A stretch of DNA of 64,000 bases from Escherichia phage vB_EcoM_EC001, in the sequence record MN445185.1. One strand, written 5' to 3'. A model generated the notes under the pieces. That model searched no databases and had not been told where the DNA came from. It saw only the letters and a list, made by a program, of their open reading frames with translations. Numbering within the stretch: position 1 is the stretch's first letter; the number at the start of each line of letters is the position of its first letter. The position numbers were made by a program, and so were the translations under genes. This document shows, one piece after another, positions 2,737 to 41,900 of this stretch.

Positions 2737-3300
2737 ATGTCCCGTTTACTAGAAATTCGAAACGATATCTGGCAAGAGCAGATCCACAACGATCCAGAGT
2801 GGGAAGGAGTTGAAAGTGATTTACCGGATAACCCCGACCAGCTGTTGGTGTTCCTTTATAGCGATAAAGCCAAACAGATCAAGGGGATATTTGAACGCAA
2901 AACGACAAGCTTGTCGACCTTACTGAGCTGCATTTGCTGTGGCATCAGTGAGCTTGATCCCAATCTATTCACCAACTATCTTGCGCGTAAAGTCCGTACA
3001 CCACTACTAGAAGTTACACTCCCGCCAGATATTCGTATCAGTAAAACTGTACCGACTGTTTTGCGTTTACAGGATGTGTCTGGTAGTAGCGACGATGGGG
3101 AAACAACGATTACTCTTTCCTCGTCAGAGAGTGAACTCGCAACCAAATCGTTTCTTAGCGAAGTCGAGGCCGGATTAAAGCAGGACGTAATCGTCTATAA
3201 TCTCGGCAGTGTGCCCATTGAGCCCATTTTACACTTCTTTGAAAGCCAAACCTGCCATCTTGTAGAAAGCTTAACATACCACTTTAAAGGAGCTTTATGA
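2737..3300 (+). CDS. hypothetical protein (187 aa)
   Basis: ORF with AAGGTGAG SD; 9-nt spacer from upstream gene. Confidence 0.65.
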   Translation: MSRLLEIRNDIWQEQIHNDPEWEGVESDLPDNPDQLLVFLYSDKAKQIKGIFERKTTSLSTLLSCICCGISELDPNLFTNYLARKVRTPLLEVTLPPDIRISKTVPTVLRLQDVSGSSDDGETTITLSSSESELATKSFLSEVEAGLKQDVIVYNLGSVPIEPILHFFESQTCHLVESLTYHFKGAL

Positions 3301-4251: not shown

Positions 4252-4282
4252 AATATCTCAGATATATATTACTTAGGTGAGA
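4252..4282 (+). promoter_or_regulatory. conserved promoter-like element, TATATTAC class
   Basis: …CTCAGATATATATTACTTAGGTGAG… right after stop of 3664..4251; near-identical copy at 62806; core matches phiKZ early-promoter element as I recall it. Confidence 0.45.
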
Positions 4283-6066: not shown

Positions 6067-6095
6067 CCGAAAAGTTTTCAGACAGATGTTATAAC

Positions 6096-13085: not shown

Positions 13086-13536
13086 CGCGCCTGAGCGCTT
13101 CAAGGTCGTTACAGTTAACTGTGTTGGTGCAATGGGAAGGGGCATTGCTTTGGCGTGCCGAGAACGCTTCCCATCGCTTTATAATGACTATCGCCAGAAA
13201 TGTCGTAAAGAGCAAATCGTTATCGGTGAGGTCTATTGTTATCCTGAGGAAGGGGTAATACTCCTTCCTACTAAAACCCATTTTCGCTATAAATCGCAGA
13301 TTTACTATGTCACGTCCGGCATTGATGCGCTGGCGCGACTAGGGGAAGACTTAGAAGGAGGGATTGCGATACCGCCCCTAGGGATGGCTAACGGTTGGTT
13401 ACGTTACCATGAGCGATTGGAAATCTTTATACACTTACAGAAACGACTACAGCACACGGAGCAGACTTATCGATTCTATTTACCGGACACATTGCTAAGG
13501 GAAGCAGAGAAAATCATCCCAAAAAGTTTCAAATAG
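13036..13536 (+). CDS. macro-domain protein, TARG1/DarG-like (166 aa)
   Basis: Motifs in order: HDLF…VNCVGAMGRGIALACRERFP, QIYYVTSG, GIAIPPLGMANGW, resembling the TARG1/OARD1/DarG macro subfamily as I recall it. Confidence 0.6.
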   Translation: MSLELIDEAVISHDLFNAPERFKVVTVNCVGAMGRGIALACRERFPSLYNDYRQKCRKEQIVIGEVYCYPEEGVILLPTKTHFRYKSQIYYVTSGIDALARLGEDLEGGIAIPPLGMANGWLRYHERLEIFIHLQKRLQHTEQTYRFYLPDTLLREAEKIIPKSFK

Positions 13537-13551
13537 ATATTATCATCAGGG
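13520..13551 (+). promoter_or_regulatory. conserved promoter-like element (ATATTATC variant)
   Basis: CAAAAAGTTTCAAATAGATATTATCATCAGGG; shares A-tract + AGATAgATATTAyC pattern. Confidence 0.4.
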
Positions 13552-14358: not shown

Positions 14359-14948
14359 CACTCGTAACACGCCCCTGGTATCCAGGTCTTAAAACAGCCG
14401 CACAAATCACCGCCAAAGATGTCTACGAATTAATTCGCGCGGGTGCGGAACACGTTCAAACCAACCCGAACTATGTAGAGCGTCCTATCGGTGAAGTCGA
14501 TGGGGAAGCTGTCGAAGCACCGGTCTACGTTGAGTACGGCGAATGGTTCGCAGAGAACCACGGTTTCTACGACGCGTTAAACGCGGCGTTTGGTGATGAC
14601 GAAGACGAAGGTATCGAATTCGACTGGAACGTTAATCTGGCGCTGATGTGGATTTGTGGTTTACGTCCAGCAATTAACGAAACCGAAGCAGGTTTCGTGC
14701 TGACCTGGCGACAGTCGGCAGGTTACGATAAAGGTCTCGACTTCAAACAGGCGTATATGGATGTGTCGATTGCACTGCAGAAACTGTTCTTCGGCGACCG
14801 TGCTTTCTGCCAGCTCAGCTGGTTGACCATCCTGGAAAAACTGGCAACGTGTCACAAACTGTGGCGAGCAGAAGATGCCCCAGAACATCTGTTCGTGCTC
14901 GAATACGCAGTGGTACCAAACCAGCCGTTCTTTGAGGCCGAAGCGTAA
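14355..14948 (+). CDS. hypothetical protein (197 aa, TTG start)
   Basis: TTG start overlapping upstream stop (TTGA) with AAGGAG 7 nt upstream; no in-frame ATG for ~97 codons; terminator follows. Confidence 0.6.
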   Translation: MTLVTRPWYPGLKTAAQITAKDVYELIRAGAEHVQTNPNYVERPIGEVDGEAVEAPVYVEYGEWFAENHGFYDALNAAFGDDEDEGIEFDWNVNLALMWICGLRPAINETEAGFVLTWRQSAGYDKGLDFKQAYMDVSIALQKLFFGDRAFCQLSWLTILEKLATCHKLWRAEDAPEHLFVLEYAVVPNQPFFEAEA

Positions 14949-16479: not shown

Positions 16480-16516
16480 CTACCTACTCCCTTGGGAGTA
16501 GGTAGTTCTTTTTTTC
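16480..16516. terminator. bidirectional intrinsic terminator between convergent genes
   Basis: 11-bp stem CTACCTACTCC/GGAGTAGGTAG, loop CTTG; T-run downstream and A-run (AAAAAATAAAAG) upstream. Confidence 0.8.
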
Positions 16517-22618: not shown

Positions 22619-22643
22619 TCTGAGATAGATATTATCTACAGGG
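22616..22643 (+). promoter_or_regulatory. conserved promoter-like element (ATATTATC variant)
   Basis: TAATCTGAGATAGATATTATCTACAGGG, ~30 nt upstream of SD of gene 22672. Confidence 0.4.
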
Positions 22644-26290: not shown

Positions 26291-26301
26291 AATAAAGCCT
26301 A

Positions 26302-26345
26302 CCCACTCCCCTTATGGGAGTGGGTAATGCTTATTTTTTTTTTAT
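26302..26345. terminator. bidirectional intrinsic terminator between convergent genes
   Basis: CCCACTCCC-cttat-GGGAGTGGG; long T-run downstream, A-run upstream; flanks nearly identical to the terminator at 16480. Confidence 0.8.
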
Positions 26346-27510: not shown

Positions 27511-29004
27511 ATGGCAGGTCCAGCTAAACAAGTCATGGGTGAAGTGATTCGCCCTCGTTTTAACGTATATACCATCATGGACCACGCTCTCGGTAACTAC
27601 GAGCGCGGGGAAGATGGTTTGTACTACCTCAACGGTGGTTTTGCCCACATCATGGGCTTCGCAGGTCGTGGGAACACCTTTAAGTCTACCTTATTAGACT
27701 TCTGCATTTTCATGATTCTGCAACGTTATAATGCGGCCTGGGGATCGAAATACGATACCGAAGTTACGGCAGCATTAAGTCGTCTGGAAACGGGGTATAT
27801 CTCCGCTGCGAAAGCAAACGGATTAGAAGTATCACCAACAGGCGGCGTGCTGGACCTGATCCACGAAGGTCGTTACAACATGGTTGGCTCGGATATCATG
27901 GCGGGTGAGGAGTATTACTCTGCTTATATCCGTGACGAAGTCGAAAAACGTTTCAAAGAGTACATGGCTGGTAAGGCACGCGAAACACCGTTCCCGGACC
28001 CAATCCGTCGCTCTGCGAAAAAGATTCTCGACCCGTGGTTGTACTCGATTGACTCCCTGTCCGAATGGCACACCTCTTCTCTGGAAGAGAAACATGCCAA
28101 ATCAGAAGTCGGTGATTCTGAACAGAACATCCTGAACGCCCACGATGCGTTGCAGAAATCGAACATGATGAGCCGTTGGCCGTCTGCGTTTGCGCGTGGT
28201 GGTTTCTATATGGGCTTCGTTGCTCAGTTGGCCGACGATGCGGGTAAAGCAATGGCGGCAGGTGGCCGTGGTGGACCGAAGGCGAACGGTAAACTGTTGG
28301 ACGATGCAGGCGATGATCTGAAGTTTGCGGGTATCCCGCGCCGTCAGTTGTCGTTCTTAACTAACTCCCTGCTGGTTGCAACCAAGTCTGGTGAGTTGAA
28401 GCAGGATCAGACTTACAACGCGAAGACCGGTGTAAACGAAGAGAAATACCCGACTGCGCGTTCGAAAGCAATGAATGCTTCGGTGAACGACCTGAAAGAA
28501 ATTGTTTTCACGCAGTACCGTGCGAAGGGTGGTCACACAGGCGTTAAGTTCAAAATGGTCTTCTCGCAGGAGATGGGTCTGCTTTATCACCTCTCTCTGT
28601 GGCATTACCTGAGCGACACACTGAAAGATGAATGGGGCTACAAACGTAGTGGTGCTAACTATACCCTCGATTTGCTACCTGGTACATCTTTCATGCGTAC
28701 CACGATTCGCGACATGTGTGACAGCAACCCGCGTTTGCGCCGTGCGTTGGAAATCACCGCCGCATTAGCGTACATGCAGAATAACTACCACCGACTGGAA
28801 ATGAAATACCATCTCTCACCGGCGGAGCTTTATAAAGTTATCGACGAAAAGTGGGACTGGAATGAAATTCTGGACAATACAGTGGAATACTGGATGTTCA
28901 AGGATCAGGAAGTCAAAGGTGGTAAGCGTTGCTTAACAGCAATGTCATTACTGGCGATGGCCGTGGATGGTCTGGAACCTAAGTTCTTGACTAAGAAGAA
29001 ATAA
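27511..29004 (+). CDS. UvsX/RecA-like recombinase (497 aa)
   Basis: …AHIMGFAGRGNTFKSTLLDF… parallels T4 UvsX degenerate P-loop (…ILAGPSKSFKSNFGL…) and downstream KYDTEV ~ UvsX FYDSEF; from memory of the UvsX sequence. Confidence 0.65.
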   Translation: MAGPAKQVMGEVIRPRFNVYTIMDHALGNYERGEDGLYYLNGGFAHIMGFAGRGNTFKSTLLDFCIFMILQRYNAAWGSKYDTEVTAALSRLETGYISAAKANGLEVSPTGGVLDLIHEGRYNMVGSDIMAGEEYYSAYIRDEVEKRFKEYMAGKARETPFPDPIRRSAKKILDPWLYSIDSLSEWHTSSLEEKHAKSEVGDSEQNILNAHDALQKSNMMSRWPSAFARGGFYMGFVAQLADDAGKAMAAGGRGGPKANGKLLDDAGDDLKFAGIPRRQLSFLTNSLLVATKSGELKQDQTYNAKTGVNEEKYPTARSKAMNASVNDLKEIVFTQYRAKGGHTGVKFKMVFSQEMGLLYHLSLWHYLSDTLKDEWGYKRSGANYTLDLLPGTSFMRTTIRDMCDSNPRLRRALEITAALAYMQNNYHRLEMKYHLSPAELYKVIDEKWDWNEILDNTVEYWMFKDQEVKGGKRCLTAMSLLAMAVDGLEPKFLTKKK

Positions 29005-29008
29005 GCAT

Positions 29009-29034
29009 GGGCGGGGCAACCCGCCTGTTTTTTC
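29009..29034 (+). terminator. intrinsic terminator
   Basis: GGGCGGG-gcaa-CCCGCCT then GTTTTTTCC. Confidence 0.7.
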
Positions 29035-29049
29035 CCCTGAGGATTAGCG

Positions 29050-29325
29050 ATGCGTTATCAGAAAGATATTGTAGAGCGTCTGTGTCTGGGTCTCGCTGGT
29101 ATTAGCCAGGAACTTAGCACCGCGTTCCATAACGAGTTCTCAGCACCGCGACATGCACTGTCTGAATTTAGTCATCAGGTAAATGCCCATTACGGCAACC
29201 TGATTAATGATAAACCGAAGGTTGATGCGGTCGGTGTGCCTGAACACAATGAAGATATCCCGTACTGGATTGAAGACCTGGAACGTGTGGTTCTTCCAGT
29301 GCTCCGTGAGAGGATGAAAAAATGA
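29050..29325 (+). CDS. hypothetical protein (91 aa)
   Basis: GAGGA SD; follows a terminator. Confidence 0.5.
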   Translation: MRYQKDIVERLCLGLAGISQELSTAFHNEFSAPRHALSEFSHQVNAHYGNLINDKPKVDAVGVPEHNEDIPYWIEDLERVVLPVLRERMKK

Positions 29326-29990
29326 GATTAGACCCGGCACGGCGAAAAAAAGCAGAAGCTTATGCTTTACAGTTACTGAACTTAGTTGACCCGACCGGGA
29401 TTAACGCGGAAGCTGCCAAGCGCGCTTTCTCACGAATGTCTGACGAAGAGTTCAATCGTCTGCGCGAAGGGTTGCCTGTTTACAACCCAACTGGCGGCAA
29501 GGTCAAAATTGACCATATGCGCAATATTAAAATTTGCGAAGCGATGGGACTGAGCTTGTGTCAGCGCCTGTGGCTCACGGAACCGAAAACCGGTATCCTA
29601 CAACGTACCCGTTACCCCCATTTAGTCTTCCGCCTGCCTGCACGTCGCCAGACGCAGATGCAAGAGAAGAAAATGGCGGTGGCGAAGAACGATAAAGTCC
29701 GCGATAAACTCTCAGGTCAGGTAGTAGGTCCTTCCAAAGCTTCGGGTGTTTCGTTTCCAGAAGCCTACATCATGTACTCGGATGGACACGACTCAACGCT
29801 CCAGGAGTTCCTGTGGGCGCGTGGTGGTAACGATACGTTACAACGTGCGTTCTATCAATCGCTACGGCAAACCGGTAAAGGTCGCATCAACCTGGAAGGG
29901 GCTGAGCGTACCAGTTCAAAAGCGCCGCGTACATGGTCTTCGTACTTTAAAGCAATGCACATCGGTAACAACTTAGGACGCCCGGAATGA
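29322..29990 (+). CDS. hypothetical protein (222 aa)
   Basis: ATGA overlap with upstream gene. Confidence 0.6.
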   Translation: MRLDPARRKKAEAYALQLLNLVDPTGINAEAAKRAFSRMSDEEFNRLREGLPVYNPTGGKVKIDHMRNIKICEAMGLSLCQRLWLTEPKTGILQRTRYPHLVFRLPARRQTQMQEKKMAVAKNDKVRDKLSGQVVGPSKASGVSFPEAYIMYSDGHDSTLQEFLWARGGNDTLQRAFYQSLRQTGKGRINLEGAERTSSKAPRTWSSYFKAMHIGNNLGRPE

Positions 29991-30715
29991 GATTAGGACG
30001 CCGTTTCTTAGTCGATATCGACACAATCTTCGATACACGAATTGGTTGGGCGAAAGTGTTGCAGCCTGATGTATTAGAGAAGCTTGATTTAGAAGTGTAT
30101 CGGATGCGGTTCACAGATGCGTGGGCCGAAGTGGTAGGAATTCAGGACTGGAATAAAAAGTTCGCGGAGCGTGATAAACGCGCGTTGCAGAACGCGCAGC
30201 CAACAGAAATGTTGCTTACGCTAAAGAACGAAGTACAGGCAATGTTAATGACGATACAGATGCACGCTCCTATCGAGCGACCTGTCTTAACGTTTAACCT
30301 GTGGCCATACGCTGATCTCGATGATGAAGAACGTCATGCGTTTTTGGAAGAACTGCGTTACTACTATAACGAAGTGCAAGTAGACGTCGTTGTTATTCCT
30401 CACAGCGATCTTACACCAGGGCGACTTGCTTCGGCGTGGGACGGTTGGATAATGTACGATTGGTATCCGTGGATAGAACAACACGCGAACCATTTCCAGA
30501 AACCGATTCCGGATTTTACGATTACCCGACCGAGTATGCTGACCAGCGAATTAACGGAAGAAGCAATCGCGCAAATAAAAAGAGATAAGGTGAACCCCTT
30601 TAAGGAGTCCACCCGTTTTCTTGCTCAATACGTCGGTACTGACGTAAAGGACACTGCGCTGTTTAGTCTTCGTCGTCATCAGCAGGACGACGACTCGCAA
30701 ACGCAGACGCCATGA
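29987..30715 (+). CDS. hypothetical protein (242 aa)
   Basis: ATGA overlap with upstream gene; 3' end overlaps a convergent minus ORF. Confidence 0.6.
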   Translation: MRLGRRFLVDIDTIFDTRIGWAKVLQPDVLEKLDLEVYRMRFTDAWAEVVGIQDWNKKFAERDKRALQNAQPTEMLLTLKNEVQAMLMTIQMHAPIERPVLTFNLWPYADLDDEERHAFLEELRYYYNEVQVDVVVIPHSDLTPGRLASAWDGWIMYDWYPWIEQHANHFQKPIPDFTITRPSMLTSELTEEAIAQIKRDKVNPFKESTRFLAQYVGTDVKDTALFSLRRHQQDDDSQTQTP

Positions 30716-31133
30716 TCTGGTCAACGTCAATCTTTTCGCCTACTGGTGCCAACTCACCTTCTTTCGGAGGCCGTACTGCGGCAATCTGTGGGACGGTGGG
30801 TTGGTATCCGTTATTTAAATCTTCTTCATCGTCGTGACGTTTGATACCAACGCCTGCACGAGTCATTAAGAAGCCGTTTAAACTGTTGGCCAAATCTTGA
30901 GTCGCCTCAGCGCCTTTCTCAGCAGCTTTAATTTTCCGCTTCGTCATGACCTGTTTGTCGATGCCGTTGATTAGGCGTTCGATTCGGTCGACGGCTTTTA
31001 AGTCTTTGTGTACTTCACCGTCGTTCACCATATCTGTGACGAGCTTAACGCGTAGCTGTTGTGTTTGGCGGAGAAGCGAATCTTCGTTGTCCACATCTCC
31101 GTCGAACGCTTGGTATTTCACTTCTTCGCTCAT
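30663..31133 (-). CDS. hypothetical acidic protein (156 aa)
   Basis: Minus-strand ORF with GAGGT SD; 53-nt convergent overlap with the plus gene, so one of the two 3' ends may be wrong. Confidence 0.45.
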   Translation of the reverse strand: MSEEVKYQAFDGDVDNEDSLLRQTQQLRVKLVTDMVNDGEVHKDLKAVDRIERLINGIDKQVMTKRKIKAAEKGAEATQDLANSLNGFLMTRAGVGIKRHDDEEDLNNGYQPTVPQIAAVRPPKEGELAPVGEKIDVDQIMASAFASRRPADDDED

Positions 31134-31147
31134 GGGATAACCTCATC

Positions 31148-31183
31148 TCAAAAAGAACTCAGACAGATATTATCTATCCGAGA
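31148..31183 (+). promoter_or_regulatory. conserved promoter-like element (ATATTATC variant)
   Basis: TCAAAAAGAACTCAGACAGATATTATCTATCCGAG in a divergent intergenic region; shares AAAAAGAACT with 62806 copy. Confidence 0.4.
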
Positions 31184-31209
31184 CAACATCTCATAATAGG
31201 ATAACACCT

Positions 31210-31740
31210 ATGCTTTTTAAATGGCTTTCAACACTCCTGCGTCGTAAGGCTGTAGAAGCTCGCAGACGCTCTTTGGAGGCTGAGTTTCATAAGAATACCC
31301 ATAACACCCTGCACAGAGTGATGGTGGGCTTAGAACTCATTACAGAGCCTCTGGAATATAATGGGAAAGAATACCTTCCTTTTTCATTACGTGGACAACT
31401 CGAATTACGTATTCGAGATTTTGACACGTTGGTGGAGCGATTGGAATTCTTCATTTCTGAGTATAACCGTGTATCCAGTAGCAACATTCCCAATCAACGT
31501 TGGTTAGAGTTGCCTGAGGCAATCGATAGAAAAGGAGAGAGTTCAGAACCACGATGGCTTGATCATTATTTCGGTGCATCCGATCCTGAAGTCGCGCGCG
31601 ATAAACTGCGCACAGTCTTCGCTATGTTAGAACTGTATCAGCGTGCATTTGATAAACAAACACCCGAACAGGATACGCTGTTTAATCAAACCGCACATAT
31701 CTTCCGCGAGTTAGAAGTGATAGTGGAACACTATCTCTAA
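31210..31740 (+). CDS. hypothetical protein (176 aa)
   Basis: AGGA SD; preceded by promoter-like motif AAAAAGAACTCAGACAGATATTATC. Confidence 0.6.
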   Translation: MLFKWLSTLLRRKAVEARRRSLEAEFHKNTHNTLHRVMVGLELITEPLEYNGKEYLPFSLRGQLELRIRDFDTLVERLEFFISEYNRVSSSNIPNQRWLELPEAIDRKGESSEPRWLDHYFGASDPEVARDKLRTVFAMLELYQRAFDKQTPEQDTLFNQTAHIFRELEVIVEHYL

Positions 31741-31773
31741 CTTTTAATCTATTCCCTTGTAACAAGGTGATGT

Positions 31774-32652
31774 ATGGATGATGAGAAAAAGCCGCCGCTG
31801 AATAGCACACGCGAGCAAATTTGGCACGGTACGCCACCGGCGTCAGATTCCAGCTACCCGTTAAGGAAAGCTTATTGGAATCTGGTTAAGTTGATGGGTA
31901 TTAGCGACGGGATATGGAAAGACCTTATCCGTCAACATGTCAACGACCCGGAGTATCTGAAACAGTTTCGTGACAGCAAACTGACCACGATGACCGACCG
32001 CGTTAACCGGCTGAACACCTCACTTACGGGTGGTTCGGTACGTAACCTGACAGTCGATTTTACGTGGAAACGTTTCATCGAGGGATTAGTTATCCTGGAG
32101 ATGCAAACGCTAACAGTCACCCTGCTGACTAAGCGGGGAAGCTTTGACACGAAGTGTTTTGTATTCGACAGTACGTTTGTGCGTGAGGACTTCATTAAGA
32201 ACTTACGTAATGAGAACAGGAAGAAGCGTAAAGAGCGTTTCGAGCATCCCGCATCTTACGACGTTAACGAGTATGTCGCGAACATCGACCACACTATCGA
32301 ACATGTGATGAAGCACATTCTCCTGCGTTTAATCTACAAAGTTATTCGTGGGTATAAAATCGATGGTGATAAACTGGAACGGTGGACGACGAACTACGTC
32401 AACAACCCTAAGTTGTGCCCAGGCACATCATCCAAACGTGGGGACAGACGAAACAACATGAAACAGGCGATGCGTCACACCGAGGCAATCACCTGGCGTT
32501 GGTTTCTAATAATCTTACAAGCGCTGGACGTACGTGAGTTCGAAATCACTTTCAAAGTTCGCCATCGTAGTGGTAGAGAATATGAGGTCAGCGACAACGT
32601 TCCGTTAGCGACGTATAGATTCTGGAGTTCCAATGAAACTGAACAACCTTGA
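31774..32652 (+). CDS. hypothetical protein (292 aa)
   Basis: AAGGTG SD partly inside a small hairpin (CCTTGT-AA-CAAGG). Confidence 0.6.
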   Translation: MDDEKKPPLNSTREQIWHGTPPASDSSYPLRKAYWNLVKLMGISDGIWKDLIRQHVNDPEYLKQFRDSKLTTMTDRVNRLNTSLTGGSVRNLTVDFTWKRFIEGLVILEMQTLTVTLLTKRGSFDTKCFVFDSTFVREDFIKNLRNENRKKRKERFEHPASYDVNEYVANIDHTIEHVMKHILLRLIYKVIRGYKIDGDKLERWTTNYVNNPKLCPGTSSKRGDRRNNMKQAMRHTEAITWRWFLIILQALDVREFEITFKVRHRSGREYEVSDNVPLATYRFWSSNETEQP

Positions 32653-41846: not shown

Positions 41847-41860
41847 AAAATAAAAGCAAA

Positions 41861-41900
41861 CGAGTACCCCGTTAGGGGTACTCGCATTACTTATTTTTTT
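41861..41900. terminator. bidirectional intrinsic terminator between convergent genes
   Basis: CGAGTACCCC-gtta-GGGGTACTCG; T-run downstream, AAAAAATAAAAGC upstream. Confidence 0.8.

Follow-up and report, generated by a model that had tools for sequence, protein, structure and literature searches.

Organization of the gp219/gp220 locus

The DNA analyzed here is a stretch of 64,000 nucleotides (nt) from Escherichia phage vB_EcoM_EC001 (record MN445185.1; the whole stretch is referred to as the window) in which two convergently transcribed genes, the homologs of genes 219 and 220 of Salmonella phage SPN3US, share 53 nt at their 3′ ends. The window shares ~99% identity with SPN3US and near relatives (Seoulvirus; nucleus-forming phiKZ-like jumbo phages), and SPN3US positions are obtained by adding 160441 to window positions. 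The two genes and the segment that they share are as follows.

29987..30715, plus strand: gp219 homolog (SPN3US_0219), a coding sequence (CDS) of 242 amino acids with an ATG start, of the phiKZ gp147 family (phrog_3328)
30663..31133, minus strand: gp220 homolog (SPN3US_0220), a CDS of 156 amino acids with an ATG start (phrog_5894)
30663..30715, both strands: dual-coding tail-to-tail overlap of 53 nt, 3′ end to 3′ end

An earlier note on this DNA, made from the letters alone, had reported a convergent overlap of this length with plausible Shine-Dalgarno sequences for both frames. The two intervals match the list of open reading frames (ORFs) exactly, and AGGA is present ~10 nt before 29987 and GAGG ~8 nt before 31133. 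The SPN3US annotation contains the identical two CDSs with the identical 53-nt overlap. Genes gp216, gp217, and gp218 are situated upstream of gp219; gp216 is UvsX-like, gp218 is a fragment of the virion RNA polymerase (vRNAP) beta subunit, and the gp218 stop is overlapped by the gp219 ATG (29987) as ATGA. gp220 is a single minus-strand gene within a plus-strand block, with gp221 and the later genes transcribed from the plus strand.

gp219 and gp220 are conserved genes

Both gp219 and gp220 are real, conserved genes under purifying selection. gp219 is 99.6–100% identical to its counterparts in SPN3US and relatives, matches phrog_3328 over residues 1–236 of 242 (E 3e-85), and has homologs in 171 jumbo-phage records including phiKZ gp147 (tblastn). 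SPN3US gene 219 is essential, being one of 13 genes proven so by a sole amber mutation (am30, Q91am), and the same source lists its product as the phiKZ ORF147 homolog without a virion-protein label (PMC5105663). gp220 matches phrog_5894 over residues 1–155 of 156 (E 7e-61); neither PHROG family has an assigned function. Homologs of gp220 are found in Seoulvirus, Erskinevirus, Machinavirus, Wellingtonvirus, and Derbicusvirus, and Serratia phage Moabite encodes a homolog of its N-terminal part (36% identity, E 9e-14). In pooled pairwise comparisons, which are therefore not independent, the ratio of nonsynonymous to synonymous differences (pN/pS) outside the overlap is 0.39 for gp219 and 0.45 for gp220. 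In the 45 nt flanking the overlap the variability is wobble-dominated in the proper frame, with an entropy of 1.3–1.4 at codon position 3 vs 0.3–0.5 at position 2; the corresponding values for the single-coding flank of gp220 are 1.37 and 0.29.

An AlphaFold2 model of gp219 has an alpha/beta fold (predicted template modeling score 0.79) with the last 10 residues (233–242) disordered, at a predicted local distance difference test (pLDDT) score below 50. The gp220 model is of low confidence (mean pLDDT 60) and is predicted to contain a long helical hairpin (residues 17–92), a disordered linker, a short conserved helix (137–146, DQIMASAFA), and an acidic disordered tail; its last nine residues also have pLDDT below 50. 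The C-terminal ends are ...HQQDDDSQTQTP for gp219 and ...RPADDDED for gp220. Sequence searches of Pfam, NCBIfam, and the Protein Data Bank (PDB) with gp219 and gp220 gave no matches, and Foldseek searches with the gp219 model found nothing in the PDB at E≤0.001 and only uncharacterized jumbo-phage homologs in BFVD. In the literature searched for evidence of gp220 expression, SPN3US gp220 is not mentioned, and a preprint on phiKZ transposon mutagenesis does not mention gp147.

Residues 9–13 of gp219 (window 30011–30025) read V-D-I-D-T, a DxDxT string resembling motif I of the haloacid dehalogenase (HAD) superfamily, and a role as a HAD-like phosphatase or nucleotidase was considered. Asp10 and Asp12 are not invariant and are replaced in Moabite, and structural matches to viral HAD-like or nucleotidase proteins are weak (E 0.007–0.09), with none in the PDB at E≤0.001; gp219 is probably not a HAD enzyme.

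The earlier note had offered two readings of the overlap, a mis-called C-terminus or a genuine antisense overlap. The first is excluded because each stop codon is fixed by its frame and both ORFs are real (gp219 is essential, and gp220 has the pN/pS of 0.45 and wobble-dominated variation described above); both stops are also kept in the 19 lineages compared below. The second is supported. A broader form of the first reading, that one ORF is not a gene or is wrongly ended through a sequencing error or frameshift, is extremely unlikely. One partner is indeed omitted from some deposits (Proteus phage 7 has no gp219 CDS and the phiEaH2 RefSeq record no gp220), and gp220 has no Pfam, NCBIfam, or PDB relatives; against this are the same intact ends in more than 30 genomes and contigs, the full-length PHROG matches of both products, the wobble-dominated single-coding flanks, the gp219 amber phenotype, and overlap indels that come only in threes. 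The annotation question is thus settled: both genes and both ends are right, and the annotations that drop one partner (Proteus phage 7 and the phiEaH2 RefSeq) are wrong.

The overlap is conserved across relatives

Conservation of the overlap was examined in 14 GenBank and 18 IMG/VR loci, corresponding to 19 distinct lineages from five genera and metagenomic contigs. The overlap is present in all 19 lineages at lengths of 23–56 nt, and the length is always 2 modulo 3, so that the frame relation of gp219 and gp220 never changes; insertions and deletions there occur only in multiples of three. More than 30 independent genomes and metagenomic contigs have both ORFs intact and ending at the same places. 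The overlap lengths are as follows.

SPN3US: 53 nt
SPAsTU: 47 nt
pEa_SNUABM_29: 35 nt
Stratton and Asesino: 56 nt
Huxley and Kwan: 50 nt
Caitlin and pEa_SNUABM_8: 56 nt
ChrisDB and pEa_SNUABM_11: 53 nt
CR5, Derbicus, and Phobos: 23 nt
Metagenomic loci L027–L029 and L038: 47 nt
Metagenomic locus L032: 56 nt
Metagenomic loci L030, L036, and L037: 50 nt

The SPN3US annotation contains 18 convergent gene pairs, 17 of which are separated by gaps of 9–786 nt (most of them 37–133 nt), and gp219/gp220 is the sole pair that overlaps. As the only overlapping convergent pair in SPN3US, and one that recurs in every relative examined, the gp219/gp220 overlap is more than a chance occurrence.

Two reading frames share the 53 nt at small cost

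Within the overlap, codon position 1 of the plus strand faces position 1 of the minus strand, plus position 2 faces minus position 3, and plus position 3 faces minus position 2. In the left part the gp219 residues S-L-R-R-H are encoded opposite the acidic gp220 tail D-D-D-E-D-stop, and in the right part the gp220 helix I-M-A-S-A-F is opposite the disordered gp219 tail Q-T-Q-T-P-stop. Each stop is tied to conserved codons of the partner. The gp219 stop (TGA or TAA) is the reverse complement of the invariant Ile-Met codons ATY-ATG of gp220 in 14 of the 16 non-Derbicus lineages, and the gp220 stop (TAA) is the reverse complement of the gp219 Phe-Ser codons TTY-AGY in 15 of 16, the serine always being encoded by AGY.

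Synonymous change is suppressed in both frames, with pS falling from 0.77 outside the overlap to 0.32 inside it for gp219 and from 0.67 to 0.48 for gp220, while pN stays at ~0.31. Every codon-position class in the overlap is less variable than a free wobble site, with a highest class entropy of 0.91 vs 1.3–1.4. Within the overlap gp220 has a pN/pS of 0.65 and gp219 one of 0.98, and the gp220 frame is therefore the better preserved on average. In the alignments gp219 keeps L-F-S-x-R-R-P and is variable beyond it, and gp220 keeps I-M-x-x-A-F, followed by R-P and then the acidic tail. The I-M-x-x-A-F segment is also conserved in Derbicusvirus, where it is outside the overlap, and the semi-conserved (Q/K)-T-P of the gp219 tail is the mirror of the gp220 A-F codons. 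The constrained residues (gp219 S-x-R-R-P and gp220 I-M-x-x-A-F) thus face the predicted disordered tail of the partner, and the cost of dual coding is small.

The distal tail of gp219 behaves as a passenger of the conserved I-M-x-x-A-F codons of gp220, and it appears to be dispensable, since SPAsTU and pEa_SNUABM_29 have acquired earlier gp219 stops. The earlier note had named a lack of coding constraint in one frame as the outcome that would speak against the overlap. This is found for only the distal ~10 residues of gp219, which have a pN/pS of ~1, are shortened in two lineages, and are without net constraint; both genes are conserved overall.

The 53 nt carry no convincing regulatory signal of their own. 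A hairpin inside the overlap (TCGTCGTC/GACGACGA, 30671–30694) was considered as a functional structure or bidirectional terminator and rejected: its z-score is only −1.4 to −2.0, it is without flanking T-runs, and conservation does not extend beyond Seoulvirus. The pairing probably arises because Arg codons (CGT) are opposite Asp codons (GAC). A single symmetric bidirectional terminator was not found between or over the gp219 and gp220 stops.

Bidirectional terminators elsewhere in the window and in Moabite

Terminator-like sites are enriched in the window (44 vs 18.8±3.8 and 31 vs 19.4±5.2). Two convergent junctions that were checked have canonical bidirectional terminators, and a further site forms the upstream boundary of the gp217–gp219 plus-strand unit.

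26299–26327, both strands: bidirectional terminator at a convergent junction, with a perfect GC-rich stem, A-run and T-run flanks, and a TTTAT(T) tail
41860–41885, both strands: bidirectional terminator at a convergent junction, with a perfect GC-rich stem, A-run and T-run flanks, and a TTTAT(T) tail
29007..29028, plus strand: canonical terminator-like hairpin with a T6 run, directly after gp216

The homologous convergent pair of Moabite (gp166/gp167) has a 35-nt gap (coordinates 2984–3018 of locus L042) containing a perfect hairpin, GGTGGAGGG-TAACT-(T)CCCTCCACC. This gapped arrangement is likely to be ancestral; in the SPN3US clade both the Moabite-type gap and the intergenic terminator hairpin are gone. 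The canonical terminators of the window and of Moabite have the same presumed job as any that act at gp219/gp220, that of ending two convergent transcripts. However, they are single perfect GC-rich hairpins of 10–12 bp with A- and T-run flanks in gaps of 35–60 nt, whereas at gp219/gp220 there are two distinct hairpins that are imperfect, strand-specific, and made of codons.

Hairpins embedded in the partner coding sequences

The two embedded hairpins have the following positions.

30572..30614, minus strand: hairpin with stem 30614..30588 (11–12 bp including three G.U pairs) followed by UAUCUCUUUUUAUUUG; putative gp220 terminator
30745..30824, plus strand: long hairpin with an outer 14-bp helix and inner helices (minimum free energy ~−40 kcal/mol) followed by CGUUAUUUAAAUC

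Both have a stable GC-containing stem just downstream of the relevant stop, as intrinsic terminators do. The minus-strand hairpin is 49 nt beyond the gp220 stop within the gp219 codons for I-K-R-D-K-V-N-P-F-K-E-S-T-R. Its tail is UAUCUCUUUUUAUUU, which resembles the TTTAT(T) tails of the canonical terminators of this phage, and relatives have T5–T7 runs. In an alignment of 16 lineages 74% of the cells are paired, vs 34–53% in slid registers, with compensatory G-C/C-G double changes and a G.U:A.C ratio of 29:5. Compared with synonymous-codon shuffles of gp219 it has a z-score of −4.3 in the window, −3.9 to −5.2 in Seoulvirus, and −2.9 to −3.8 in Wellingtonvirus, and it is likewise far more stable than the shuffles in further lineages. 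Machinavirus phages have a different minus-strand hairpin ~115–165 nt downstream, followed by T7, and Derbicusvirus has a large minus-strand hairpin with T7 immediately after the stop; both are also inside gp219.

The plus-strand hairpin is 30–95 nt beyond the gp219 stop in the gp220 codons for G-E-L-A-P-V-G and G-Y-Q-P-T, with 30745–30758 pairing with 30795–30808 in the outer helix. Its paired cells amount to 87%, vs 31–56% in slid registers, with double changes at four pairs and a G.U:A.C ratio of 45:10. The z-score is −3.5 to −4.1 in the window and −2.2 to −4.3 vs synonymous shuffles in 13 of 16 lineages, and in all 16 the plus strand folds more stably than its complement (by a mean of 11.8 kcal/mol). 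The tail is limited to CGUUAUUUAAAUC or NNUAUUUU, and Wellingtonvirus lacks it. This hairpin is a putative terminator or 3′-end structure of the gp217–219 transcript. An unbiased scan of both genes and both strands in 70-nt segments against synonymous shuffles gave 30587–30656 as the top minus-strand region (z −6.0) and 30747–30816 as the top plus-strand region (z −4.1).

A conserved element between gp220 and gp221

The gap between gp220 and gp221 is 76 nt and contains an element, CAAAAAGAACTCAGACAGATATTATCTATCCGAG, that is conserved across all five genera. It includes one copy of a motif, CAGAYAGATRTTATC, that looks like a class of phage promoter; the position of the element and further plus-strand copies of the motif are as follows.

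31149..31182, strand ambiguous: conserved intergenic element CAAAAAGAACTCAGACAGATATTATCTATCCGAG with a palindromic core AGATATTATCT and a hairpin at 31158–31182
734–748, 4259–4273, 6079–6093, 13530–13544, and 22622–22636, plus strand: copies of CAGAYAGATRTTATC

There are 12 matches to CAGAYAGATRTTATC in the window vs 3.9±1.8 expected, and the best copies are all on the plus strand and have a common A-rich upstream context (AAAAG..CAGAYAGATRTTATC). The element is likely to be a phage promoter, and the motif with its A-rich context is reminiscent of the A-rich/TACT description of phiKZ middle promoters (PMC8244752). The spacing from CAAAAAGAACTCAGACAGATATTATCTATCCGAG to the gp220 ATG is conserved, that to the gp221 ATG is variable, and the core is palindromic, which suggests that the element may serve both directions. 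The promoter-like element that the earlier note had placed beside the minus-strand gene is real as a conserved motif, although its orientation is ambiguous. Predicted host sigma-70 promoters in the window are no more numerous than in shuffled sequences.

At ~13571 and ~22672 (SPN3US ~174012 and ~183113) AAGGAG and an ATG follow copies of the CAGAYAGATRTTATC motif by 27–36 nt. Both sites are inside annotated CDSs and have no annotated start; they may be internal starts or small genes.

Predicted termination and transcript overlap

The tail-to-tail overlap of gp219 and gp220 is authentic and was fixed long ago in SPN3US-like chimalliviruses, and we consider it probable that the terminators of both genes have been relocated into the coding sequences of their partners. 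The ancestral state would have been a short gap with a bidirectional terminator hairpin, as in Moabite and at the two window junctions. In the SPN3US clade the gap would have collapsed and termination would have shifted into the coding sequence of the partner: the minus-strand hairpin and U-tract inside gp219 would end the gp220 transcript, and the plus-strand hairpin with its TTATTT tail inside gp220 would end the gp217–219 transcript. Each embedded hairpin would be stabilized by G.U pairs that exist on the terminating strand alone. The gp219 and gp220 mRNAs are then predicted to be complementary over ~240 nt (roughly 30575–30820), well beyond the 53 nt of the CDS overlap.

Several points weigh against relocation of the terminators. 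The proposal that the embedded hairpins terminate or stabilize the two transcripts derives from the DNA sequence. The plus-strand hairpin is long and imperfect, with a short T-rich tail (TTATTT or ATTTT) that is separated from the stem by 2–6 nt. Wellingtonvirus has only a weak version of it (z −1 to −1.7) and Derbicusvirus has none, and the protein sequence could dictate the two invariant G.U pairs of the helix. The covariation statistics of both hairpins are inflated by shared ancestry. At the Seoulvirus position, Machinavirus and metagenomic loci L027–L029 have only a weak minus-strand hairpin, for which other hairpins substitute, and the minus element is therefore positionally labile.

In a rival account the overlap is real and transcriptionally meaningless, a by-product of neutral compaction that is locked because a change of frame damages both proteins. 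Plus-strand transcription would read through gp220 into gp221, leaving gp220 as an antisense gene within one long plus-strand unit, and the hairpins would not be terminators but would serve RNA stability or processing or slow the ribosomes. The short, displaced plus-strand tail, the absence of that hairpin from two genera, and the variable hairpin positions among genera are all compatible with neutral compaction, as are the distal gp219 tail, with a pN/pS of ~1 and truncated without consequence in SPAsTU and SNUABM_29, and the frequency of overlapping transcription units and read-through in phiKZ (PMC10914365). However, both hairpins are strongest on their own strand immediately past the relevant stop, codon choice is biased toward keeping them, the G.U asymmetry points to the strand that needs termination, and the minus-strand versions have the T5–T7 runs and TTTAT(T) tail typical of the canonical terminators of this phage. 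In addition, the promoter-like element in the gp220/gp221 gap is as expected if plus-strand transcription restarts there. On balance neutral compaction is a possible, though rather unlikely, explanation of the locus.

The predicted complementarity also raises the question of regulation. The earlier note had suggested that an antisense overlap would couple expression of the two genes; if there is coupling, it is more likely to come from the predicted ~240-nt transcript overlap than from the shared 53 nt. In an excludon or antisense device, convergent transcription and an RNA duplex between the complementary 3′ ends would render expression of gp219 and gp220 mutually exclusive or temporally ordered, through transcriptional interference or cleavage of an RNase III type. 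Such a device would agree with the ~240-nt predicted overlap, with the retention of the arrangement over five genera while every other convergent pair has a gap, and with gp220 being the single minus-strand gene of its block and having a conserved element upstream of its start; 3′ overlaps of convergent mRNAs are moreover a known regulatory layer in bacteria (PMC7154746). Nonetheless, regulation is not needed to account for the conservation of the overlap, since conserved partner residues hold both stops in place, Moabite handles the same gene pair with a plain intergenic terminator, and the overlap is only 23 nt in Derbicusvirus. We regard a device of this kind as very doubtful. A more elaborate version of terminator relocation, an interlocked pair in which G.U-based strand-specific terminators and an obligatory ~240-nt sense–antisense duplex together form a conserved timing or dosage switch, is quite improbable.

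Comparison with known systems

Most tail-to-tail overlaps of convergent genes in prokaryote and phage genomes are a few bases long. The gp219/gp220 pair shares with known examples the opposite strands, the position of each stop in the frame of the partner, and the suppression of synonymous change, but differs from typical ones in its length (53 nt, and up to 56 nt in relatives), its fixed frame over five genera, and its inclusion of an essential core gene, and in having no counterpart elsewhere in its genome. The pair illustrates cleanly how DNA can be shared at low cost in nature, with constrained residues opposite disordered tails and stops pinned by the partner.

Long-read mapping of phiKZ transcripts by ONT-cappable-seq identified 133 termination sites, with intrinsic terminators consisting of a GC-rich stem followed by TTAT; 28% of the sites are within the downstream gene and 9% are antisense to genes, and six convergent pairs have two oppositely oriented sites 23–183 nt apart and hence overlapping transcripts (PMC10914365). 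These overlapping bidirectional terminator regions belong to the same phage family and likewise have hairpins followed by a TTAT-type tail (PMC10914365). They lie between convergent genes, however, whereas gp219/gp220 has no intergenic space, its putative sites are inside the partner CDSs, and their predicted spacing is ~240 nt. The locus fits as an extreme case of the phiKZ pattern. The intergenic terminators of the window fit the phiKZ-type motif (e.g. TACCCACTCCCC TTAT GGGAGTGGGTA); the embedded hairpins do not have the stem sequence of the phiKZ motif BCCYCCCCHWWDGGGRRGGBYTTATKYYGT (PMC10914365), and their tails alone resemble it.

Excludons and regulation by overlapping 3′ untranslated regions likewise involve convergent transcripts with long complementary 3′ regions, and overlapping 3′ regions of convergent mRNAs are a recognized phenomenon in bacteria (PMC7154746). 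For excludons the regulatory outcome is demonstrated, whereas at gp219/gp220 the transcript boundaries are only predicted.

The overlap is true, unusually well conserved, and by itself of modest interest; the embedded hairpins make the locus a good test case for the mapping of transcript ends in SPN3US-like phages. Relocation of the terminators would predict that the antisense strand of a coding sequence can hold terminators in nucleus-forming jumbo phages, made strand-specific by G.U pairs, with long complementary 3′ ends around an essential gene as a consequence. If so, such sites in dense phage genomes would be overlooked systematically by terminator predictors that leave out coding regions.

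Additional features and annotation irregularities

A search of 28900–31900 against Rfam found no RNA family and only two sub-threshold chance matches. One of these, to PrrB/RsmZ at 28928–29034 (20.8 bits with a gathering score of 44, E 0.06), is on the hairpin that follows gp216 and is almost certainly due to chance.

Annotations of the gp219/gp220 region differ among relatives. That of Proteus phage 7 (L002, MT679221) omits the gp219 homolog entirely, and the phiEaH2 RefSeq record (L007, NC_019929) omits gp220, truncates gp218, and calls an 894-nt plus-strand ORF across the gp220/gp221 region. Caitlin has an extra annotated plus-strand ORF (gp234) antisense to its gp220 homolog. Matches to the records LR535901–LR535917, which represent several SPFM phages, are split into 22–40 pieces at 98–99% identity and sister SPFM records align whole, which suggests many small indel errors in the fragmented assemblies.

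Two further irregularities are in other parts of the window. Inside CDS ACQ60_gp065 (176749..177882) there is a strong bidirectional terminator-like hairpin (16480–16505; SPN3US 176921–176946) with perfect pairing and a T-run on each strand; the annotated start of this CDS may be wrong, or the CDS may combine two genes. A 132-nt minus-strand CDS (14528–14659; SPN3US 174969..175100) is 9 nt from the preceding plus-strand gene, which is the narrowest gap of any convergent pair in the genome, and it also runs into the beginning of the plus-strand gene that follows; it looks like a doubtful gene call.

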